Shown here: positions 2,659 to 25,834 of the stretch, piece by piece
How the letters are laid out: every line of letters starts with the position of its first letter
Position numbering within the stretch: position 1 is the stretch's first letter
Source of the DNA: an uncultured Spirochaetota bacterium
GTDB lineage: Bacteria > Spirochaetota > Spirochaetia > SZUA-6 > Fen-1364
Assembly: GCA_963745235.1 (NCBI GenBank)
Contig: CAVUXE010000011.1
Coordinates: 1 to 64,000, forward strand
DNA length: 64,000 bases
Direction of reading: 5' to 3'
Position numbers and translations under genes: made by a program
The notes under the pieces: generated by a model
The model's input: only the letters and a program-made list of their open reading frames with translations
What the model was told of the DNA's origin: nothing
Database searches by the model: none

Positions 2659-3660
2659 CTACCGCTCAAGCCCCAAGCTTCGTAGGTAGGCCTCCGTCAC
2701 CGCAACGTTAGCATGTCCCAAGGCGCTCTTGAGCGCATACACGTCGTGCGTCCGCCGGTAAAGCCGAACGGCAAAGGCATGACGCAGGTCGTGGGCGGAG
2801 TACGCTCCTCGGATCCTCCCCTGCCCTTCGAGCTTCTTGGTGAGATACTTCAGCGCGTCCTCGATCTTGTTGACCTTCTTCCCCTCAAACGGCGAGCGTA
2901 GCGGCAGCCCGGCGCGCCCAACCGCCTTCCTCGCCTCCTCGGGGATCAGGCCAACCTGTTCCCGGCCCTTGCTCATGCATGTGAAGTGGCTTCCCGTGAT
3001 CGAAAGCGACGGCAGGGCCCCTGCGCGAAGGCCCACCCTGGCCATGACAACCACGGCCGCTCTCAGCCATCCGCCAGCGGCCTTCTCGATGAGTTTGACC
3101 TCCCCCTCACTGGGAACCTGAAGCCTGCGGGCTGGCTTCTTGAGCGGACGGCTCCTGGTACCGCGGAAGGGGTTATGAAGCTCGCGGTGACGGCGCTCGA
3201 GCCAGGTCCAAAAGGATGATGAGGCGGCCACCATGAGGTGGACGCTGGAAGGAGCGAGGCCCTCGGCCTTCATGCTCTCGATCCAGTCATCGGCCAAGGC
3301 AGGGATCAGCTCCAAGGGAGAAAGCCCCCTGGGGGCGCACCAGGCTTCCAGGCGGTCCAGGGCCGCGCGGTACGCGAGCCTGGTGTGCTTTGACCCTGCC
3401 CGTCCCGCTCGCTCCAGGTAGCACTCGCGCTCCTGGGCGTAGGGGATCCGCTCCAGGTCCGCGGCCTGGCGTAGCTCGTCCTTAAGGGTTTCAGCCACTA
3501 CCACACGCGCAAGCTGCTCCAGCTGCTCCTCGTCGAGGTCAGCCAGACGCGGGGCGTGCTGGGAGAGGTGGCGCACGATTGCCTTTACGCGCTGCGCTCC
3601 TGTCTTCTCGACGCGGTCGGTGAGCTCTGCTGTCACGGGGCCGCAGGCCCCGCGCCCCAT
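2659..3660 (-). CDS. Tyrosine recombinase (Xer/integrase family)
   Basis: Catalytic motifs GLRAG, HDLRH, LGH and TEAY are intact. An AAAGGAG RBS with ATG at 3677 suggests the true start is slightly upstream, across a frameshift. Confidence 0.9.
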   Translation of the reverse strand: MGRGACGPVTAELTDRVEKTGAQRVKAIVRHLSQHAPRLADLDEEQLEQLARVVVAETLKDELRQAADLERIPYAQERECYLERAGRAGSKHTRLAYRAALDRLEAWCAPRGLSPLELIPALADDWIESMKAEGLAPSSVHLMVAASSSFWTWLERRHRELHNPFRGTRSRPLKKPARRLQVPSEGEVKLIEKAAGGWLRAAVVVMARVGLRAGALPSLSITGSHFTCMSKGREQVGLIPEEARKAVGRAGLPLRSPFEGKKVNKIEDALKYLTKKLEGQGRIRGAYSAHDLRHAFAVRLYRRTHDVYALKSALGHANVAVTEAYLRSLGLER

Positions 3661-3830: not shown

Positions 3831-4415
3831 TCAACCTTTGCTGTTCGGATCGGCATCACGTTTTGCTTGTGCCCCGCGCTTCTCTTCTGCCAGCTGATTC
3901 ATTTCCTCAAGGCCAAGCTCCTTGGCGTTCTCGAGAATGAGCTCCTTGATATTTTCGGGATCGAAATGCCATATGGTGCCCCGCTGCAAACTGTCTTTGA
4001 CGGAGTTCGAAAACCCTTCAATCAAGCGATAAGCCTTGGCAAGCCTTTCCTTCTTCTGGACAGGAGGAAGATCGACCAAGCTGGAATCAGCAAAGTGGTA
4101 TGCGAGAAAATGGGTGAAAAGGTTGCAAAGCATTGCTATGTGTGCGTTTCCTTCCCTAAGCTCTTGAGTGTAGTTGTTCATGCGCTCGAAAAGGATCGGC
4201 CAGAAGGTTTCCTCCTCCTTGAGATACCTTGCAAGTGCCCGCCGGATGAGCACTGACCGAGACATGTTGAAGCGTTGATCGTTGTGAGACTTGAGATACT
4301 CGTACATTTTGTTATCCAGCTCATAGGTTAGATAAAAGCGGACCATTCTCCCGACGGTTTTGGATTTTGGTCGTCCGCGCTTGGGAGATTTTGGGCTATT
4401 TTCGTTACCGGACAT
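3831..4415 (-). CDS. CopG/ribbon-helix-helix protein with coiled-coil C-terminus (relaxosome-accessory-like)
   Basis: 'MVRFYLTYELDNKMYEYL...MSRSVLIRRALARYL' RHH pattern; GGAGG RBS; architecture resembles CopG-family proteins of conjugative elements. Confidence 0.6.
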   Translation of the reverse strand: MSGNENSPKSPKRGRPKSKTVGRMVRFYLTYELDNKMYEYLKSHNDQRFNMSRSVLIRRALARYLKEEETFWPILFERMNNYTQELREGNAHIAMLCNLFTHFLAYHFADSSLVDLPPVQKKERLAKAYRLIEGFSNSVKDSLQRGTIWHFDPENIKELILENAKELGLEEMNQLAEEKRGAQAKRDADPNSKG

Positions 4416-4790
4416 AGAGGTACCTCCCTTTGAATTATTGTTGATTTAACTTCTCATAACTCCTTACGGGGCAAGGAACAGGAATAAATGTATGTGCAAT
4501 AACCCACAAAAACTAATTTCTTGCATCATATAAATATTTATAATATAAGAAATAAAGAATAAATAGTGCCCATACCTTATCTTGCTGTAAAATCTTCTCC
4601 TTCCCTTCGTCAACGTTTTTTCCCTGTTTTTCGGGTTTTTCGCGCTTTTCGGGGCGCTTTTTTCTTGAGTGGGCCGTTTTTTAGTCGAATTTAGGGAGTC
4701 TTTGCCTGAAATCGAATTATTTGCAGTTTTCAGCGCCCCCGAGATCACCATCGTAGCCAAAAGGCGCGTGCCAGGGGGACCTTTGGCTCA

Positions 4791-5138
4791 CTATCCATGC
4801 TTCTTCAGGGCGCTGGGTTCGGTTTTTTCTGATAGCACCACCGCCTCACGGATCATGCGGGTGAAAACGACGTTTGGCCTGTGCGTAGCGCAGCAGCTGG
4901 CAACAAATTGATCCCAAAGCTCGATGTCGATCACGAATTGCACCCAGCGCAGCCCCGGGTGCGCCTCCCGCCAGATCTCTGACTGCCTCCTCCGTCTTGC
5001 CCTCTGTTTCTCTGTGGGCCCACTCCCATGGGGGGCTGTCGTGAGCTCGCCAGGCGTTGGCCCAGCGACCACCTCCACCTTCTGCGCTTCCGACTTCTTT
5101 CGGACCACCACGACCTTCCTGCTCGCATCAGCTGCCAT
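4791..5138 (-). CDS. Hypothetical protein of the mobile element
   Basis: 115-aa ORF with a GGAGGGG RBS, co-oriented with rep. Confidence 0.55.
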   Translation of the reverse strand: MAADASRKVVVVRKKSEAQKVEVVAGPTPGELTTAPHGSGPTEKQRARRRRQSEIWREAHPGLRWVQFVIDIELWDQFVASCCATHRPNVVFTRMIREAVVLSEKTEPSALKKHG

Positions 5139-5171: not shown

Positions 5172-5423
5172 CTAACCCATGAGAGTCCCTCGCGGGCCGT
5201 TGCCGGACTTCTGATCGAAGTACGCCCGAGCGCTCATGCCGTAGTCGAAGTCACACCTGTCGCACACCTGATAGTTGCTGACAATCGCATGAGCCGCGTC
5301 GCATCCGCACTGTGGGCAGAAATGACGGCCTCGGAATTGGGCCTCGAAATCGAGATCCGCTGACTTGGCCTTTTTCACCCTCTTTCCTGGCACCACGGGA
5401 AACTCCAGCTGCTCCTCGCTCAT
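5172..5423 (-). CDS. Small zinc-ribbon protein
   Basis: CPQC...CDRC motif; ATGA overlap with the upstream ORF. Confidence 0.55.
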   Translation of the reverse strand: MSEEQLEFPVVPGKRVKKAKSADLDFEAQFRGRHFCPQCGCDAAHAIVSNYQVCDRCDFDYGMSARAYFDQKSGNGPRGTLMG

Positions 5424-5686
5424 ATGGGTTTTCCCCTCTCCCCTCCCCTCGCACTCCGTCCGTGCTCTTGATCTCTCAGGGATCTACTCCTAAGCCCACC
5501 ACGTCTCTCCATGTCTTGGGCTTCCCGGAATCCGGTCCCCACCCCTTCCAATACTCCAAGAAGAGAAAAAGGCCAAGAGACCTCTCCCTCGTAGGCCACT
5601 TCTCCTTCTCCCAGTCCGTCTCCGTCTACTCCGTACAGCTCCTCCGGTGAATCCTGCCCCGTTATCCTATTCGGTTTGTCTCTCAT
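5420..5686 (-). CDS. Hypothetical protein
   Basis: 88-aa ORF with 4-bp overlaps to both neighbours, implying translational coupling. Confidence 0.45.
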   Translation of the reverse strand: MRDKPNRITGQDSPEELYGVDGDGLGEGEVAYEGEVSWPFSLLGVLEGVGTGFREAQDMERRGGLRSRSLRDQEHGRSARGGERGKPI

Positions 5687-6563
5687 GCTCGTACCCTCTT
5701 CCAGGGCAGCTGCGATATGGCTGCCTCGATCTGACTCTGCCAGTAGGGATCTTCTCGCTCCCGCAGAAGGCGCTCGCGCTTTTTAGCCTGCTCACGCTCT
5801 CTTTCCCGCTGTTCCTCCCGCGAAGCCGCGAGGTGCCGCAATTGGTTTTCCTGCCGGTCTCGCTCTAAGGCCTTCCGAATCCACCGCGGGAATCGATCAG
5901 CGATAAAGGACAGTCCGCCACGCTCTTGAGGATCCCTCGCAGCAATTCGTACAACCCGTGCAATCTCCCCCGCTGACCTGCCCTCGGCCAGTAGTCGACG
6001 AGCTCCCTCTCGAAATCGCCGGTCATGAATGAGACCTGGGACATCGAAGAGTTCACGGATCACTTCCTCCTCAGGCTGTGAGGTAGAAGGGGGGGGTGCG
6101 GAAACTCGGGAGAGCTTTGTGGAATGAGCGGGGACTCCCCCTTTTTTTGGATTTTGTTCGGATTGAATATAGTTCGTGTCCACCCGGTGGACGGGGGGAG
6201 TGTATCGGGAAGGGAGGGGGTGTCGTTCTGGGTGACGGGGGGGTATCTTCTGGCCTCAATTGGAATGAGTTTGTAGGCGTTGGAAGTCACCCCTCCGTCA
6301 GGGCGGAAACGGGCGGTACGCTTGAGGTAGCCGAGGGCCTCCAGGTGCTTGATAGCCTGGAAGGCCTTTGATCTACACACGCGGGCAACTCTGGCTATGG
6401 TAGCCATGGAAGGCCAGCATGTACCCTCCCCGTCTGCGTGCTTGGCTAGTGCCAGGTACACAAGGACATCGACTGGGCCAAGTGCCTGGTCCTCAAGGAT
6501 GATGTTCTCGATGAGCGTGAAAGGCAGACGCCGACGCTCCACTCCAACGGAATCACTTTGCAT
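5683..6563 (-). CDS. Replication initiator-like winged-HTH protein (HTH_36-type), split by one frameshift in a G/C run
   Basis: N-terminus 'VLVYLALAKHADGEGTCWPSMATIARVARVCRSKAFQAIKHLEALGYLKR...SNAYKL' is typical of phage/plasmid initiators. ORFs 6060-6563 and 5683-6183 overlap across homopolymer runs. Confidence 0.7.
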
Positions 6564-6618
6564 GGTCCCCTCCCAGAGGCGTGGCGCTTAGGACAAACCT
6601 AGAGCGCTGATTTTTTGC

Positions 6619-6647
6619 TTGACGCTTTTGAGGGTTTGTGCTATTGT
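6619..6647 (+). promoter_or_regulatory. Sigma70 promoter with extended -10, antisense to rep
   Basis: TTGACG, 17 bp, TATTGT, with TG at the extended -10 position. Confidence 0.75.
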
Positions 6648-6651
6648 CTGA

Positions 6652-6720
6652 TTACCACATCGGACAATAACGGCCTTCAATGGCGCAAGCGAACCCCCCG
6701 CAAATCAGCGGGGGTTTTGC
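6652..6720 (+). ncRNA. Candidate counter-transcribed antisense RNA, copy 1
   Basis: Lies between the promoter and an intrinsic terminator (AACCCCCCGC-AAATCA-GCGGGGGTTTT); homologous to copy 2. Confidence 0.65.
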
Positions 6721-6748
6721 ATTGTTAGGCTGCTCAACGAGCTGCCGC

Positions 6749-7072
6749 TTATAGTTTTTGTATTGGCTTGACCTCCTTAAAGGCGTTCATCAAATGCACC
6801 GAGACGGCTCCTAATGGGTTACAGGCACGCACATAAGATCTGTCTCGTGGTTGCGCTGAGATTTCTTTGGTTTGCAGTTGGTATAGGACTATCCAGACAC
6901 CTAGATTTTTCCATCCTTTGTGCATCACGAGAAGAGATTCGTTTGCGAAGGTATGCTGGGTGTCGTGAGCTCCCCTCATCCGCCCTAACAGGGGCCATAA
7001 CGGGCAAAGAGACATGACAACACGATGAAGCCTGTGGGTTTTAGCATAGTTGCCGTCGAATGAATGATCCAC
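6749..7072 (-). CDS. Hypothetical or degenerate ORF with the same leader as rep
   Basis: GGAGGGGAACC-GTG start matches the rep leader GGAGGGGACC-ATG; no recognisable domain. Confidence 0.35.
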   Translation of the reverse strand: MDHSFDGNYAKTHRLHRVVMSLCPLWPLLGRMRGAHDTQHTFANESLLVMHKGWKNLGVWIVLYQLQTKEISAQPRDRSYVRACNPLGAVSVHLMNAFKEVKPIQKL

Positions 7073-7125
7073 GGTTCCCCTCCAAATACGTGGCGCTCGG
7101 ACATAAATCGACCATCGATTATTGC

Positions 7126-7154
7126 TTGACGCTATGGAAGGTTCGTGCTATGAT
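7126..7154 (+). promoter_or_regulatory. Sigma70 promoter with extended -10, second copy
   Basis: TTGACG, 17 bp, TATGAT, with TG extension. Confidence 0.75.
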
Positions 7155-7158
7155 CTTG

Positions 7159-7228
7159 ATTACCACATCAGACCGTAGCCCGCCGTCTCTAGCGGCAAGC
7201 AGAGCCCCGAAAGAATCGGGGCTTTTGC
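7159..7228 (+). ncRNA. Candidate counter-transcribed antisense RNA, copy 2
   Basis: Shared 5' ATTACCACATC; hairpin GCCG-TCTCTAG-CGGC; terminator AGCCCCGA-AAGAA-TCGGGGCTTTT. Confidence 0.65.
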
Positions 7229-7348
7229 GTTATTATGCTGGTCAACGGCCAGCCGCTTGTAGGTTTACTTATGATTCCCTATAGGCTATCTCCTCCCAAA
7301 TCAAACCCGATCATATACTCCCCGACGGCCGACTGTTAGCCGAATTTT

Positions 7349-8254
7349 TCACCTCTTTCCCCTCAAAGCTTCTTCGAGATTACGAATTACCTCGGCCGGT
7401 GCCTTTGGCAGCTTCACTCGGCGAAGAATGCGGAGCACGAGTACTGCGTGCCCTCGGGAAAGTTGTACAGTCACTTTGCCCGAGGCGGCCGTAACCTTCC
7501 CCGGGGGGTTTGCTTTCGCACGCCGCTGGGCGTTCAACTTCGCGCGTGTCTCTCGAATGTCCTCTATGTCAGGGTCAGGCTTGCCCATATCCCTAGCCCT
7601 ACGCGCCGCATCGCGCAGAATTGCTCGTTCGCTCTTAATTGTGCGGACGCTCTTGCCGGTCTCCTTTGCGATTTCTTGCGCCGTAGTCGGAAATGGTGAA
7701 ACCGTTGCACGATTATTCTTAGTCGGGCGTCCTGCCTTGCCTTCCTGCCCGAAGTAGTCCGGCCAAACTTTGCGATACAGATTTAAGCGCGTATCTTCAT
7801 CCACTTCAAAACGAGAAAGGTTTCCAAGGTAGACGCGGCGTTCGGCTTCCTCGGGAGTAATTGGGGAGGAGACGACACGTACCGGAATTCGCCCCAAGTC
7901 GTGCCCTTCGGCTTTCAACTCTTCTGCTATGCGTAGCCGAGAATGGCCTTCGAGGAGAGTGCCGTCGGGTAGCACGATCAAAGGATTGAGAATCGCTCCC
8001 GCTTCGAGAATGTCACGTTTTAAGTCTCGCCAGTAAGTTTCGCTCTTGGCGGAGTCGAACACGTGATTTGATGGATGGGGCTTGAAACGATCTAGGGGCC
8101 AAGAAAGAATCTCGGACATTTCTAGGCCTTGAATAACGAGGGATGGCTCGGTGGGTTCATCCTTGGATTTTCTGATGTAGCCTGTGCGTGGACCGGAAAC
8201 GTTGGCAATAAGACGAGCCTCGCGATCTGCCTTCCGCTCTTCTGGGCTTTTCAT
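7349..8254 (-). CDS. parB: ParB N-terminal domain protein
   Basis: 'FKPHPSN...GAILNPLIV...LLEGHSRLRIA...GNLSRF' ParB/Srx fold plus a later HTH; overlaps the parA stop. Confidence 0.8.
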   Translation of the reverse strand: MKSPEERKADREARLIANVSGPRTGYIRKSKDEPTEPSLVIQGLEMSEILSWPLDRFKPHPSNHVFDSAKSETYWRDLKRDILEAGAILNPLIVLPDGTLLEGHSRLRIAEELKAEGHDLGRIPVRVVSSPITPEEAERRVYLGNLSRFEVDEDTRLNLYRKVWPDYFGQEGKAGRPTKNNRATVSPFPTTAQEIAKETGKSVRTIKSERAILRDAARRARDMGKPDPDIEDIRETRAKLNAQRRAKANPPGKVTAASGKVTVQLSRGHAVLVLRILRRVKLPKAPAEVIRNLEEALRGKR

Positions 8255-8973
8255 TCCATCACCTCACGTGCGAGCTCGGTGTACCAAGCCCAGGCCTTGC
8301 CAGTATCTTTTAGGGCTTTTCCGGTGTTGGTAGCGTTGCGAATCGCCGAACTCTTAAAAATAGCAGTACGTGTCATAGTCCAGCCTGGAAGTTTACGCAA
8401 AGTTTCCGCGTCGTTTTCCGTTACAATGTCGGGGAGAGCCAGGAGACGCACGGGACGTCCAGTTGTTTCCTCAACTAGACGGAGTTCGTCTGCAATCACT
8501 TCGTAAGCAGAAATAGTCCAGCGGGAGAGGCCGACGGGTACAAGAACCAAGTCTGCTGCATACAAGGCGAGAGTCAATTCGATGGTGAGGGATGGCGTTG
8601 TGTCGATGATGATGACCTCGGCGTCAAGCTCTTTCAGTTTCGATGGGAATCGAAAGATGATCCCAGGATCATGTGCGAGGTCGCGGGCTGCTCGCGCTAT
8701 AGATGGAGTGCCGGGGATCAGGTTGATATTGAATGTGGTTGGGATTAGACACTCGGCAAGGGTACAGTGTCCGGTGAGAGCACGATAAAGGGAGTGCTCC
8801 TCTATGGTCGCCGCGCTTTCATCTCGGGCTAGGGCGTCGGTTAAGTTATTGTTTGCGTCGGCATCGATCGCGATAACGCGCTTCCCTGCGTTTGCCAAAG
8901 CCTCCGCAGTGAAGAGGGCGGACGTGGTTTTTCCAACTCCCCCTTTTAGTGATGCAAAAGCTATAACCTTCAC
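8251..8973 (-). CDS. parA: ParA family partition ATPase
   Basis: Deviant Walker A KGGVGKTT, plus IDAD and IIIDT motifs. Confidence 0.92.
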   Translation of the reverse strand: MKVIAFASLKGGVGKTTSALFTAEALANAGKRVIAIDADANNNLTDALARDESAATIEEHSLYRALTGHCTLAECLIPTTFNINLIPGTPSIARAARDLAHDPGIIFRFPSKLKELDAEVIIIDTTPSLTIELTLALYAADLVLVPVGLSRWTISAYEVIADELRLVEETTGRPVRLLALPDIVTENDAETLRKLPGWTMTRTAIFKSSAIRNATNTGKALKDTGKAWAWYTELAREVME

Positions 8974-11842: not shown

Positions 11843-12901
11843 TCATAGCTTCTCCGTATCCAGGGCCAGCGTGTTCCTCAAGTATTTCTCCGTGATCGCT
11901 ATTGCCGCATGCCCCAGCCTGCGCTGAAGCCACCTCAGGCCATTAGCGGCGTTCGCCTCTGCGAAGGCATGGCGCAGGTCGTGAAAGCTGTAGACCGCCA
12001 GGATTTTCCCTTGCGCCACAAGCTGTTGGCACAGCCGCTGTAGCTGCATCTGCAGCCGTGCGATCACCAAGCCGTCCGTGGACGTCTGAGCCTGATCCTT
12101 CAATTTCCAGCCAACCCGTCGAAGGCTTGCCAGGGAGAAGGGCTGTCGCGGGTCAAGGCGGGCCAGATGAATTATTCTCTTTGCCTGCTTGGAAAGAGGA
12201 TCTGGCCCGATCACCTGATGTCCCTTCGAGACCGTCCAGTAGCGGCCTTCCTCTCGAATGGAGAGGGCAGGGAGGGCTCCCACGCGCAGGGCGGTCTCCG
12301 CCACCACGGCCAGGGCCGCGGCGAGCACGGGGTGGGCCTCGGCAATGAGAATTGCCAGCTCCTCCTTGGTGGGGATGGTGGCCACGGGCCAGGTGGAGCG
12401 TGGGCGGATCTTTGTCCCTCGAAAGGGATTTCTGATAGTCGCATCGCGCCGTTCGAGGAAAGTGAAGAAGGAACTGCACACCGAGACCACAAGACGCACG
12501 GTGTCGGCATCGGGAAGCTTTCCGTCGCGTCCCTGGCGTCCACGAAGCTCGCGGATGAAGTCGTCGGCCTCCCGGGGGTTAAGCTCGCCGGGGGTAAGCT
12601 TGTGGGTTTCCATCCAGGCGTCAAGGAGGCCCAAAGCACGCTCGTAGACCGCTCTTGTGCGCTGCGATGTCTTGTCCGATATAAAAGTGGCACGCTCGGC
12701 TTTCCAATCAAGGCGCTCCGCGGCGACCCTGCGGCGCACCTGGTCTTTGAGCTCATCGACGACCGCCAGGCGCATGATCTGCGTGGCGGCCTCGGGCGTA
12801 AGCTCTTCGAGCTCAGGAAGGCTTTCTGCGATCTGGGCGATGCTGGCGGCGATGAAAGCGGCTCCTGCGTGTTTAGGTTTTAGCTGATCAGGCGAGTCCA
12901 T
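11843..12901 (-). CDS. Tyrosine recombinase, paralog of 2659-3660
   Basis: ALRVG, HDLRH, LGH and TEKY motifs. Shares the N-terminal extension and the 'SSF(F/W)T(F/W)LERR...NPFRGT' block with the first copy. Confidence 0.9.
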   Translation of the reverse strand: MDSPDQLKPKHAGAAFIAASIAQIAESLPELEELTPEAATQIMRLAVVDELKDQVRRRVAAERLDWKAERATFISDKTSQRTRAVYERALGLLDAWMETHKLTPGELNPREADDFIRELRGRQGRDGKLPDADTVRLVVSVCSSFFTFLERRDATIRNPFRGTKIRPRSTWPVATIPTKEELAILIAEAHPVLAAALAVVAETALRVGALPALSIREEGRYWTVSKGHQVIGPDPLSKQAKRIIHLARLDPRQPFSLASLRRVGWKLKDQAQTSTDGLVIARLQMQLQRLCQQLVAQGKILAVYSFHDLRHAFAEANAANGLRWLQRRLGHAAIAITEKYLRNTLALDTEKL

Positions 12902-19904: not shown

Positions 19905-21920
19905 ATGCTCCGTTTGGAATCGCATACGCGTCAAGAGGAGATGGAAATGCCGGTAAAGGATCCAAAGAAGTCTCAACTTCCTTCGCCGCTCAATAAGGGG
20001 CAGCTGCATTTCTCCCTCTGGTGGGTGGTCGGCTCCATTCTCATGATCATTGCACTGAACTTCCTCCTGATCCCGAAACCCCAAATCACAACAGTGGATT
20101 TCAGCGCCTTCAAGAAGCTGATCAGTGATGGTGTGATAAAGCGTGTGGAGATGACTCCCAGCGCCTACTACGGCTTCATTCTGACCAGGGAGCAGGAGGA
20201 TGCCCTTGCGCAGCAGAAGCCGGAGGGCAAGAGTTTTGGGATAGGAAATGTCGCCCAATCGCCCCAGTCGACCGGGGCTACCCCGAAGGAGTACCAGACC
20301 ACGCCGGTGCAGGACCCCAGCTTTGTCGCGCTGATGGATTCGAAAGGTGTCGAATACTACGCTACTTTGCCTCAAAATTATCCCCTTCTGGGCTTTCTCC
20401 TGAGCTGGATTCTTCCCTTGGGTGCGATGTTCCTGGTTTGGCGACTCTTGTCCCAGCGCATGGGTGGCATGGGACGAGGCGTGATGAGCTTCGGACAGAA
20501 CAAGTCGATGCTGATCGCAGAGGGGACTACCAATGTCAGCTTTGGCGATGTGGCGGGGGCCGAGGAAGCGAAGGCCGAGCTGGTCGAGGTTGTCGATTTC
20601 CTGAAGCACCCTGCCCGGTATACGGAGATCGGAGGAAGAATCCCGAAAGGAGTGTTGCTCGTCGGCTCACCTGGTACGGGCAAGACTCTCATGGCGAGGG
20701 CAGTCGCCGGGGAAGCGGGAGTCCCTTTTTTCAAGATCAGCGGCTCGGAGTTCGTGGAAATGTTTGTGGGGGTGGGGGCAGCGCGCGTTCGCGACCTTTT
20801 CCAGCAGGCACGAGGCAAAGCGCCGTGCATCATTTTCATCGACGAGCTGGACGCCATTGGGAAAAGTCGTGCACAGTCTCTTTCCACCAATGACGAGCGC
20901 GAGCAAACGTTGAACCAGCTCCTGGTGGAAATGGACGGGTTCGATTCGCGCACAGGAGTTATTATCCTCGCTGCCACGAACCGGCCGGAGGTCCTGGATC
21001 CGGCCTTGCTGCGTCCCGGACGCTTCGATCGGCAGGTCCTCATGGATAAGCCGGACCTGAACGGCCGCGAGGCGATCCTGCGCATTCATAGCAAGAAGGT
21101 ACAGCTTGACGATTCGGTGAATCTCAGGGACGTGGCTCGCCGGACCCCGGGGTTTGTAGGGGCGGATCTCGCGAATCTGGTGAATGAGGCGGCGCTCCTT
21201 GCCGTCAGGGCCGGCAGAGCAAGGGTAACGCAGCCGGACTTTGATTCAGCCTTCGAGAGACTGGTTGCCGGGCTGGAGAAGAAGAACAGGTTGATCAACC
21301 CAAAGGAAAGGAAGATCGTGGCCTACCATGAGACAGGCCATGCTCTGGTCGCTCAGATGACCCCGGGGGCGGACTCGGTAGAGAAGATCTCCATAGTGCC
21401 CCGCGGCATCGGCGCTCTGGGTTACACCATGCAGCTGCCCACAGAGGATCGTTTCCTGATGACGGAAGGCGAGCTCAATAACCGGATCGATGTTCTGCTC
21501 GGGGGACGGGCGGCGGAGCAACTCATCTTCCACGAAGTCTCCACGGGGGCTTCGAACGACCTGGACAAAGCGGGAGACATAGCCCGCCGCATGATCACCG
21601 ACTTCGGGATGAGCGAGAAGTTCCGCAATACCTTCCTGCCCGCAAGAAGGCAAGGTCAGCTCCTTGGCGACTCCAGCGCCATGATGCTGCGTGAATACTC
21701 GGAGGCCACACAGCAATACGTGGACGAGGAATCCGCCAAGATCATAAACGGCAGGTACGACAAGGTCGTCGAGTTGCTCCGCCGCCATGAAGGCCTCCTC
21801 CACGCGATAGCGGAAAAGCTTCTCGAGGTGGAGGTATTGGAAAAAGCGCAGTTCAAAGCGATGATAGAAGAGTTCTCGGACGGGAAGTCGTCACTCGCCG
21901 GCGCCTCCGAGGCGACGTAG
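19905..21920 (+). CDS. ftsH: ATP-dependent zinc metalloprotease FtsH
   Basis: Two TM segments, [15 protein letters not shown], the SRH region (LRPGRFDR) and the HETGH zinc motif. Confidence 0.97.
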
Positions 21921-24520: not shown

Positions 24521-25834
24521 ATGGAACGCGGGCTACCAGATGGAGTTCCTCCCCACAACGATGAGGCGGAGGTCGCTACCCTCGGTGCCATATTGATCGA
24601 CGCGGAAGCTTTCTATGCCATCGAGCACCTGATCCACGTAGAAGACTTTTACAAGGGCGCGCACCAAAAGATCTACGAGGCCATAAGCTCAATGTACCGC
24701 AGCGGTCAGTCGGTCGACTTGGTTACGCTTGCCGAAGAACTGAGAGCTCGCGGGACTCTCGAACAATGCGGGGGCGCCCCATACGTAGCACGATTGACAT
24801 CTTCGGTCCCGACGAGCGCAAATGTTGAACACTACGCGCGCATAGTCCTGGGGGCGAACATTCGTCGCATGCTTGATTCCACGTCGAAAGAGATAATTAC
24901 TCAAGCGTACGACAACTCCGCTGAAACTAGTGTCATCGTTAAGGAAGCGGAGAGAAAAATATTCGAGATCTCAGACCGTAACCAAACCGGGACCTATTTC
25001 CCTGCGAAAGAGATAGTAAAACAAACATTCGAGGCTATTGAGAAGCATTACCACTCGAAGACTGAATATACGGGGATCCCCTCGGGGTTCAGGGAGCTGG
25101 ACCAGTTAACGATGGGGTTTCAGAACTCGGAGTTTATTGTGATCGGGGCACGGCCATCAGTGGGGAAAACCGCGCTTGCTCTCACGGTTGCTGCAAATAT
25201 GGCCATTCGTGACAAGACCCCAGTGGGCTTCTTTTCCCTCGAGATGTCCAGCATGGCGATCATGCAACGACTTCTTAGCATGGAGGCGAGGCTCGACTCG
25301 CAACGTATGCGTACCGGAATGTTAAGTCCCGCGGACTTTAGCCGTATCACGGAAGCCGCCGGAAGGTTGTATGAGGCTCCACTATACATCAGCGACGTTC
25401 CTGACCTCAAGCTTATAGACTTGCGCTCGCAGGCTCGCCGAATGAAAAGCCATCATGACGTGAAGATCATTTTCATTGATTACATCACGCTGATCAGCAC
25501 GGAGAACAGGGAGTTGCCACGGCACGAACAAATTGCGGAAGTGTCGCGATCGCTGAAAGCTTTGTCTCGGGATCTGAACATTCCCGTGGTTGCACTTTCT
25601 CAGGTCCGGCGGGAAACCGAGGGGAAACGGCCGAACCTGGCTGACTTAAGGGAGTCTGGCTCCATAGAGCAAGACGCGGACGTAGTGATTTTCATCCATA
25701 CCGAGGATCTGAAAGCGGAAGTGCGTGAGGTAGCCGTGGCTAAGCAGCGAAACGGTCCGGTTGGAGAAATTTCTCTCGCGTTTCTTTCGAAGTACACAAA
25801 ATTCGAAACCCTTGAACGTGGTTCGAGCCTGTGA
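24521..25834 (+). CDS. dnaB: Replicative DNA helicase DnaB
   Basis: PPHNDEAE, GARPSVGKT, FSLEM, LRESGSIEQDAD and KQRNGPVG motifs. Confidence 0.96.
   Translation: MERGLPDGVPPHNDEAEVATLGAILIDAEAFYAIEHLIHVEDFYKGAHQKIYEAISSMYRSGQSVDLVTLAEELRARGTLEQCGGAPYVARLTSSVPTSANVEHYARIVLGANIRRMLDSTSKEIITQAYDNSAETSVIVKEAERKIFEISDRNQTGTYFPAKEIVKQTFEAIEKHYHSKTEYTGIPSGFRELDQLTMGFQNSEFIVIGARPSVGKTALALTVAANMAIRDKTPVGFFSLEMSSMAIMQRLLSMEARLDSQRMRTGMLSPADFSRITEAAGRLYEAPLYISDVPDLKLIDLRSQARRMKSHHDVKIIFIDYITLISTENRELPRHEQIAEVSRSLKALSRDLNIPVVALSQVRRETEGKRPNLADLRESGSIEQDADVVIFIHTEDLKAEVREVAVAKQRNGPVGEISLAFLSKYTKFETLERGSSL

Follow-up and report, generated by a model that had tools for sequence, protein, structure and literature searches.

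A predicted antisense RNA gene within the leader of a replication-initiator-like gene family in uncultured spirochaetes

Results

Two related modules lie between the partition genes and rep

The window analyzed here is a 64,000-nucleotide stretch of DNA from an uncultured Spirochaetota bacterium (assembly GCA_963745235.1, contig CAVUXE010000011.1, positions 1 to 64,000). Its minus strand carries a gene encoding a ParA ATPase (8251-8973; Pfam AAA_31, E = 2.4e-30, with matches to the CbiA and ParA families too), a ParB-like gene (7349-8254; phrog_4715 'ParB-like partition protein', E = 4.9e-10, no Pfam match), and a replication-initiator-like gene, rep, encoding a winged-helix HTH_36 domain (5683-6563; Pfam HTH_36, E = 1.9e-12). 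The latter gene is present as two open reading frames (ORFs), 6060-6563 and 5683-6183. The gap between the ParB-like gene and rep contains two copies of a module, designated a (next to rep) and b, each harboring a predicted small antisense RNA gene on the plus strand. This module is the subject of the present report.

Positions 6561-6757 (copy a) and 7070-7266 (copy b) are diverged direct copies displaying 72.8% identity over 195 nt (blastn, E = 1e-18), and a repeat scan of the window revealed three collinear blocks shared by both copies at an offset of 507-509 nt. An earlier note, made from the sequence alone, had described two diverged copies of ~200 bp, and this description was borne out. 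Both copies open at a minus-strand start codon located behind GGAGGGG (ATG at 6563 for copy a, GTG at 7072 for copy b). A 26-nt promoter pattern had exactly 2 sites in the window and none in 100 shuffles. The sequence TGATTACCACATC was found as an exact match in both copies by a search allowing 2 mismatches; at this tolerance, two or more matches were also obtained in 26 of 100 shuffles, so that the motif alone is little proof.

In copy a, the promoter detected by the scan on the plus strand (6619-6647) comprises a TTGACG -35 box (6619-6624), a 17-nt spacer, a TG dinucleotide, and a TATTGT -10 box (6642-6647). The predicted small antisense RNA a (~65 nt, 6654-6718, plus strand), whose start is deduced from promoter geometry only, would consist of a 19-nt 5' tail, the GCC/GGC hairpin H1 (6673-6684, by folding), the sequence GCAAGC, and a terminator hairpin followed by TTTT (6694-6714, plus strand; 6695-6714 in the scan). 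The corresponding elements of copy b are a promoter at 7126-7154 (plus strand; TTGACG, 17-nt spacer, TG, TATGAT; 10/12 matches in the promoter scan) and a predicted RNA of ~66 nt at 7161-7226 (plus strand; 117 bits with the covariance model described below) that would contain a 5' tail, the 5-bp H1 stem (7182-7196, by folding), GCAAGC, and a terminator hairpin (7201-7225) with a T-run at 7223-7226. The terminator of copy a was listed by a simple scan; that of copy b was missed by the scan and found by folding. Both predicted RNAs fold better than shuffles (z = -2.68 for a and -3.92 for b). The start codon with its GGAGGGG, the plus-strand promoter, the shared 5' end, the hairpin, and the terminator had been reported by the earlier note for each copy, and the sequence, the promoter scan, and folding agree with that report.

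Two further helices complete the module. Hairpin H0 (6640-6671 in copy a, with a fold z of -5.2 on the minus strand; 7147-7179 in copy b, from the covariance alignment and folding) holds the -10 box of the small-RNA promoter, which in copy a is located in its 5' arm, the loop being TTACCA. The palindrome HP lies just past the terminator (6728-6746 in copy a, GGCTGCTCAACGAGCTGCC; 7237-7253 in copy b, from the covariance alignment). The coordinates first given for the two copies were correct, except that the right edge was set too short: the module extends further right than 6561-6757 and 7070-7266, and includes the palindrome, a CCTCC element, and, in copy b, a promoter on the minus strand (7310-7339).

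The modules belong to a multi-copy family mostly located beside rep

The source genome is a 104-contig, 5.8-Mb assembly (86% complete, 5.9% contaminated) that contains 9 copies of the module on 7 contigs. The pair present in the window, initially treated as a local duplication, is instead part of a multi-copy family with tandem pairs in six locus types. Seven of the nine copies adjoin the start of a rep-like gene. The other two are upstream second copies, located 507 nt (window) and 583 nt (contig C8) further upstream.

Related DNA was detected in just 3 of 25 genomes of the family and, with the covariance model, in 3 of the 92 genomes of the order, the three belonging to a single genus out of 27. 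In these three genomes, unbiased DNA and covariance-model searches produced 12 full-length matches, 10 of which adjoin rep, the remaining 2 being upstream b copies. The same searches gave one weak and one partial match that are not located beside rep. The weak match (41 bits; L080 1501-1633, minus strand, on contig C242 of genome G010) has no rep homologue alongside and shares the frame formed by the T-rich tract, TTGACA, the -10 box, and the terminator, with a different RNA body; it may be a relative that has degenerated or that has another target.

To enlarge the sample, peat metagenome contigs were searched with an alignment of the Rep protein, which provided 38 loci, and genome contigs provided 3 close loci. 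Applying nhmmer to these loci and to the genome yielded 54 module copies with 46 distinct cores. One of the metagenome contigs (L036, 26.7 kb) carries two convergent initiator-like genes. The second of these (4093-5136, minus strand) encodes an unrelated 347-amino-acid protein, is preceded by its own copy of the module (5176-5317, the third on the contig), and converges on rep. Thus, the module is not bound to a single rep family.

A search of positions 5500-8500 against Rfam 15 at E values up to 10 gave rnk_pseudo as the best match (22.4 bits for a gathering score of 55, E = 1), and the whole window contained no match at gathering level to any Rfam 15 model, including those for ctRNA, CopA, and RNAI. 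The earlier note had proposed that a covariance model be built and that Rfam and relatives beside rep be searched. These analyses returned no Rfam family and 10 rep-adjoining copies among the 12 unbiased full-length matches. Together with the promoters on both strands, the plus-strand terminator, and the covarying stems described below, they argue for the proposal made there of an unannotated family of small antisense RNAs in the rep leader.

A conserved promoter overlaps a covarying hairpin

A covariance model, designated R1 (137 positions), was used to align 47 copies of the module, 46 of them distinct. The plus-strand promoter was recovered in all distinct copies, TTGAC(G/A) and TAnnnT being present in 46/46 each, separated by a spacer of 17 nt in 43 copies and of 18 nt in 3. 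A T-rich tract is located upstream of the -35 box. Four helices covary: H0 (10 bp, TTACCA loop), H1 (5 bp), the terminator stem HT, and HP, the 7-bp palindrome past the T-run. Overall, 92.2% of 1464 cells were paired in these helices, versus 80.4% in shuffles and 33-48% in slid controls, and cells with changes on both sides amounted to 151 versus 47.8 in shuffles. None of 500 shuffles reached any of five covariation measures, and 20 of the 32 base pairs change on both sides. H0 was 91.4% paired and HP 95% paired, each with 6 pairs changed on both sides. The compensatory series are also visible in the raw sequences. RNAalifold applied to a plain MAFFT alignment recovered only the terminator and the palindrome, the variable stems being misaligned, a defect cured by the covariance-model alignment. 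The two terminator stems of the window, which differ in sequence and nevertheless both pair, had been taken as a sign of selection on RNA structure, and helix covariation across the 46 variants is in agreement with this interpretation.

In the -10 hexamer embedded in H0, positions 1, 2, and 6 (T, A, and T) never covary, and positions 3 to 5 change together with their partners. This pattern fits a single stretch of DNA placed at once under promoter and stem constraint. In the terminator, only the plus strand has a T-run behind the hairpin, and the interior wobble pairs comprise 30 G-T versus 0 A-C. A transcription start ~7 nt past the -10 box (near 6654 and 7161) would put the 5' end of the predicted RNA in the H0 loop and leave the 3' arm as a tail of ~19 nt. 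With such a start, formation of the full H0 stem would be restricted to the rep leader on the minus strand or to DNA.

Other functions were considered for the palindrome HP. Its identification as a parS array or an iteron was rejected: each module contains one copy, none is clustered elsewhere in the genome, and there are no iterons nearby. A function as a Rep operator is unlikely, HP varying with compensations among paralogues that have near-identical Rep N-terminal domains.

The rep leader contains elements that point to refolding

A promoter reading towards rep was predicted on the minus strand in 31 of 37 distinct loci, with start positions of +228 to +241 relative to the rep ATG. Its hexamers are conserved (TTGCAA, TTTACA, or TTGCCG and TATGCT, TATTCT, or TATCAT, 17 nt apart) and its spacer sequence varies. 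Five of the six loci lacking this promoter are the copies nearest rep in tandem arrangements. In the window, the predicted leader promoter (7310-7339, minus strand; CTAACA, 18-nt spacer, TATGAT, start near 7303) is located 10 nt past the stop codon of the ParB-like gene. The promoter scan detected no site of comparable quality between copies a and b. The leader of the window, which spans both units, would be ~740 nt long, or longer if read through from parAB. The predicted small-RNA unit occupies +92 to +160 relative to the rep ATG, on the opposite strand and wholly within the ~235-nt leader, and therefore has the geometry of a countertranscript RNA (ctRNA).

The leader carries three conserved elements in addition to the ribosome site. 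The Shine-Dalgarno (SD) region of rep, GGGAGGGG on the minus strand (6567-6574), contains a GGAG that is invariant in 40/40 leaders. The spacer of the antisense promoter reads CAAACCCUCCGG in the mRNA sense and could pair over as many as 10 bp with CUCUGGAGGG of the ribosome site. This anti-SD (in copy a, GAGGG at 6630-6634, CCCUC in the mRNA sense) was paired with the SD in 84% of cells versus 32-65% when slid, and many of the pairs are U-G, which work in the mRNA sense only. A hairpin, GCGCT...AGCGC (6584-6607, minus strand), separates the small-RNA promoter and its anti-SD from the SD and was paired in 91% of cells in the 40 leaders. Finally, CUUGGGAGGGGUC at the beginning of the leader closely resembles the ribosome site and has no start codon behind it. 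In the window, this SD-mimic is GGGAGGAG on the minus strand (7290-7297), within a block, CTATAGGCTTGACCCCTCCCAAGATC, conserved in an alignment of 44 sequences; it is a candidate pre-emptor, or anti-anti-SD, and its counterpart in copy a is the CCTCC element at 6772-6776. The anti-SD, the SD-mimic, and the hairpin point to refolding of the leader. The earlier note had missed the location of the -10 box in a covarying hairpin arm, the CCCUCC anti-SD in the spacer, the SD-mimic, the leader promoter, and the recurrence of tandem modules.

When the antisense target was blocked in a thermodynamic folding simulation covering 31 leaders, anti-SD:SD pairing rose from 0.37 to 0.67. The SD was mostly paired even in the absence of the small RNA, its unpaired probability passing from 0.27 to 0.20 on blocking; this probability fell in 11 leaders, rose in 2, and stayed the same in 18.

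Three other modes of control were considered. No terminator-like site was found by scanning the minus strand from 7349 to 6563, and no leader hairpin is followed by a U-run; transcription attenuation of the kind found in pT181, pIP501, and p42d is unlikely for a leader strand devoid of such a site. With a target that ends ~90 nt before the start codon, the RNA is also unlikely to occlude the ribosome site directly. A leader peptide was rejected since none of the aligned loci has an ATG, GTG, or TTG behind the SD-like element with which the leader opens.

The tail and first hairpin of the predicted RNA are hypervariable

The tail and H1 form the most variable block of the module, with a mean pairwise identity of 0.57 over all pairs and of 0.59 among seven distinct co-resident copies, versus 0.72-0.79 for the promoter, the terminator, and the palindrome. 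Computed duplex energies between tail and target were -37 to -45 kcal/mol for cognate pairs and -9 to -28 kcal/mol for non-cognate pairs of co-resident copies. The hypervariable tail thereby fits a compatibility determinant for replicons that have a near-identical initiator DNA-binding domain.

The proposal that copies a and b are two specificity variants is plausible, cognate pairs of these copies having energies of -42 to -45 kcal/mol. The separation is not a clean one: the first 8 nt of the predicted RNA are the same in copies a, b, and C8a, with cross-pairing energies of -22 to -27 kcal/mol. A degree of cross-talk may therefore exist between the two units present in the window.

Tandem modules enclose differing sequences

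Tandem modules are present in six locus types (the window, C8, L026, L027/L061, L028, and L036) with a spacing of 313-591 nt. All b copies keep the full set of features, comprising the promoter, the terminator, and the four helices, with covariance-model scores of 102-121 bits. The DNA located between b and a is of diverse nature. In the window, it consists of an orphan 312-nt spacer and an ORF, ORF107 (6749-7072, minus strand, GC content 0.48), which has a GTG start with GGAGGGG and may not be a gene. Tblastn and blastn found no relative of the ORF or the spacer in the genome or the related loci, a search among 5.8 billion proteins returned the ORF's own cluster only, and there was no Pfam or NCBIfam match. 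The suggestion that copy b gates an unknown ORF is accordingly weak. In C8 and L027, the intervening DNA contains a conserved ORF of ~131-141 amino acids (58% amino acid identity between C8 and L027; L012 1071-1496 in C8), for which no Pfam or PHROG family was found. L026 has a 40-codon remnant that opens like rep (MKSDQ), and L028 contains nothing with a ribosome site. The tandem state reads as the product of exchange between sister replicons that has been tolerated or favored.

The rep gene and its replicons

The intact Rep paralogue P0001 (293 amino acids) displays an N-terminal HTH_36 domain (E = 1.6e-12) and matches PHROG 'replication initiation protein' and O-like families (E = 3e-16). 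HTH_36 is the only domain that passes the Pfam cut-off, in P0001 and in the C103 paralogue. Among the paralogues, the first ~135 residues are almost invariant and the C-terminal half is of two types. NCBIfam gave no match for rep, the parB-like gene, ORF107, or a 71-amino-acid ORF, and a tblastn search of PLSDB with Rep found distant HTH and DnaD-like genes only, with less than 41% identity over the N-terminal third. By comparison with intact paralogues of 293-298 amino acids on C8, C74, C103, and C26, the rep gene of the window is split by a 1-nt frameshift at a run of six G (6193-6198). The copies on C17 and C82 are also split, elsewhere in the gene. These splits could be assembly errors, slippage, or real pseudogenes. 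A 23-nt direct repeat (6176-6198 and 6220-6242, 74% identity) lies in the linker region of rep and adjoins the frameshift site.

The genes for ParA and the ParB-like protein, the module, and rep are co-oriented in the window and C8; parA is divergent in C103, C26, C17, and C74. The seven contigs carrying rep (C17, C26, C103, C74, C82, C8, and C11) have GC contents of 0.56-0.57 versus 0.612 for the genome. C17 is probably a ~20-kb circle, since its two ends are joined by C26. In this ~20-kb plasmid type (C26, also C103 and C17), a gene encoding an Mrr-family restriction endonuclease (L017 1772-2674 in C26; Mrr_cat, E = 6e-36; Mrr_N, E = 1.5e-31) is located just upstream of the rep leader. The seven contigs hint either that this free-living spirochaete has a Borrelia-like genome made of several replicons or that several strains were binned together.

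The window also holds genes for an FtsH protease, a DnaB helicase, and at least two tyrosine recombinases (19905-21920, 24521-25834, 2659-3660, and 11843-12901), as well as integrases, transposases, and sugar-uptake (sugar ABC transporter) functions. Because of this gene content, it looks like part of a large plasmid or chromid. A sharp AT-rich dip (4400-4599, GC content 0.32 versus ~0.55 around it), located ~1.1 kb past the end of rep, may be an unwinding element or an origin. The search for iterons was negative near this dip, in the module, and beside it.

Discussion

A candidate antisense control of rep

We consider it likely that each module is a ~235-nt rep leader with a built-in small antisense RNA gene that represses rep through refolding of the leader. 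Three features of the ctRNA class are found here at the sequence level, namely a gene predicted to lie within the leader, its own promoter and Rho-independent terminator, and stem-loops with compensatory changes, and the comparative evidence makes this assignment well supported. The leader would be read on the minus strand from a moderate promoter located just downstream of the preceding gene. The near-consensus plus-strand promoter and the intrinsic terminator inside the leader would produce an RNA of ~65 nt fully complementary to leader positions of about -92 to -160 relative to the rep start codon. The tail of this RNA would most likely seed pairing on the loop and 5' arm of H0 in the leader; the resulting duplex would then shift the fold of the leader, and the CCCUCC anti-SD provided by the spacer of the small-RNA promoter would close on the rep ribosome site. 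Less Rep would be made as copy number rises, and the RNA most likely sets both plasmid copy number and compatibility. The hypervariable tail and first hairpin would give each replicon its own specificity and allow sister replicons to coexist. The window has two units arranged in series on a single long leader behind parA and the parB-like gene, and the transcript would pass both before rep is translated.

Several observations weigh against this scheme. The sequences are kin, so that the shuffle counts and the Wilcoxon p value overstate the support, and the covariance-model alignment was fitted to the given structure and leans towards it, which makes the covariation figures generous. For the 41 loci fetched through rep homology, linkage to rep exists by construction. 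The start of the small RNA is a prediction, and a start upstream of the -10 box would put H0 in the RNA, in which case the tail model falls. The anti-SD:SD and GCGCT hairpin helices displayed no covariation beyond shuffles (186/500), and the SD is largely paired before any blocking; since the simulated effect is modest and the sequences are related, sequestration of the SD is a putative step. The rep gene of the window is itself split. Wobble pairs in the remaining helices were symmetrical (G-T 20 and A-C 19 in H0, 5 and 6 in H1, 4 and 4 in HP), which assigns none of them to one strand and gives no sign that H0 belongs to the leader strand. Finally, the contigs of one metatranscriptome run (0.05 word share) included a single 206-nt contig over 7290-7400 and left the modules uncovered, a result uninformative either way.

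The lack of strand bias, the inability of H0 to form in the predicted small RNA, the uncovered modules of the single metatranscriptome run, and a set of SD-mimic, anti-SD, and SD that could act alone in the leader would all suit a purely cis-acting structured rep leader, whose hairpins would serve as mRNA structure, protein operators, or both, the plus-strand promoter and terminator being by-products and no functional antisense RNA being made. However, an mRNA spacer has no cause to hold TTGAC(G/A) 17-18 nt from TAnnnT in 46/46 copies, positions 1, 2, and 6 of the -10 box are frozen in an otherwise covarying stem, a T-rich stretch precedes the -35 box, and a T-run behind the GC hairpin is confined to the plus strand (G-T 30, A-C 0). 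We regard this explanation as unlikely. Another route would be for the plus-strand promoter to act mainly by transcriptional interference, or for the RNA to trigger cleavage of the duplex, in place of leader refolding. The two promoters face each other ~140 nt apart, the antisense one being closer to consensus, and the anti-SD helix that lacks covariation and the modest effect in the fold simulation leave room for such a route, which we nevertheless hold to be quite improbable: interference alone leaves unexplained the conserved terminator, the covarying H1, and a hypervariable tail that is always single-stranded. That the module always lies beside rep and contains palindromes and a T-rich tract could also be read as the mark of a part of the replication origin, or of a primer-RNA unit, with no regulation of rep. 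We give this possibility very little credence, as there are no iterons in or beside the module, the only strongly AT-rich dip (4400-4599) is on the far side of rep, and the unit terminates after ~65 nt.

A further question concerns the upstream copy. The small RNA could be real and copy b could be a recombination scar between sister replicons that is still expressed and has no gene to gate, the tandem layout having no selected function. The DNA separating b from a varies from one tandem locus type to the next, the spacing ranges from 313 to 591 nt, and the near-identity of the rep N-terminus and of the module flanks among paralogues favors homologous exchange. Against a scar, the b copies keep their promoters, their terminators, and all four helices (102-121 bits), tandem pairs recur in six locus types, and rep-proximal copies of tandems have no leader promoter of their own (5/5 among the scored loci), so that rep transcripts would have to cross both units. 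A scar has an appreciable chance of being the correct account, though short of even; a selected gating role for copy b is the outcome that we find reasonably probable.

Comparison with known systems

The antisense control proposed here is of a familiar kind, exerted by an uncatalogued family, and its mechanism stays within what pSK41, pMV158, pT181, and repABC plasmids have taught. By shape and function, the nearest analogue is RNAI from pSK41, a staphylococcal RepA_N plasmid, described in a review (PMC5703833) as an RNA of ~83 nt with an unstructured 5' tail of ~18 nt and two stem-loops separated by a short single-stranded spacer, whose target is located in the rep leader ~100 nt upstream of the translation start and for which induction of a stem-loop hiding the ribosome-binding site has been proposed. 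The predicted RNA likewise has a ~19-nt tail, H1 and a terminator hairpin separated by a GCAAGC spacer, a target at -92 to -160, and a CCCUCC anti-SD beside the target. In contrast, it is ~65 nt long, is associated with an HTH_36/phage-O-like initiator and not with a RepA_N one, belongs to a spirochaete, and shares no sequence or Rfam match with pSK41 RNAI. The location of the antisense -10 box in the target hairpin, the SD-mimic at the 5' end of the leader, and the tandem units also set apart the present, putative system.

In the repABC plasmid p42d, the ctRNA gene is described as lying between repB and repC, its product refolding the leader so that pairing creates an intrinsic terminator and acting as an incompatibility determinant among co-resident sister replicons (PMC3155836). 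The layout of the window and C8 is similar, with partition genes and rep in one direction and the predicted antisense RNA gene in the last gap; the resemblance drawn by the earlier note is confirmed by the order parA, parB-like gene, module, and rep. Unlike the alphaproteobacterial repABC units, the present loci have no RepC family among the Pfam matches, no terminator-like site on the minus strand at 7349-6563, and no Rfam match. RNAII of pMV158 is reported to bind its target by a 17-nt single-stranded 5' tail, with a lesser role for the hairpin-terminator, and to repress translation (PMC4485353, PMC5703833). Reliance on a single-stranded 5' tail would be common to both RNAs, but RNAII is described in the same reports as a 48-nt RNA with one hairpin that pairs immediately upstream of the repB ribosome site, in a rolling-circle plasmid and with CopG as a partner. 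Finally, pT181 is presented as having a three-part leader with a pre-emptor, in which RNAI decides the pairing partner and transcription is attenuated at a terminator-like stem-loop (PMC5703833). The SD-mimic would play the part of the pre-emptor here, with the differences that no U-run lies behind the leader hairpins and that the candidate pre-emptor is outside the antisense target. A literature search for countertranscript or antisense control in spirochaete plasmids turned up general reviews at most.

A bolder extension, advanced tentatively and which we think rather doubtful as a whole, would make the SD-mimic, the anti-SD, and the -10 box parts of an overlapping-code switch combined with a compatibility barcode. 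The promoter would contribute its -10 box to the target hairpin as one arm and its spacer as the anti-SD shutting off rep, and the SD-mimic would act as pre-emptor. The tails would let six or more sister replicons share one cell of a free-living spirochaete, a Borrelia-like segmented genome outside Borrelia, and tandem modules would put rep under two different RNAs. If this were true, a cointegrate or hybrid replicon would be counted by two plasmid lineages at once.

The family would provide the uncultured peat spirochaetes of one genus with a concrete replication-control element and would add to the catalogue a family missing from Rfam. Its 46 natural variants form a mutational series in which the promoter, the terminator, and the anti-SD are constant and the recognition tail and first hairpin vary, a series suited to the study of antisense specificity and of the evolution of plasmid compatibility among replicons with near-identical initiator DNA-binding domains. 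The recurrent tandem units would offer a natural case of two antisense controls acting in series.

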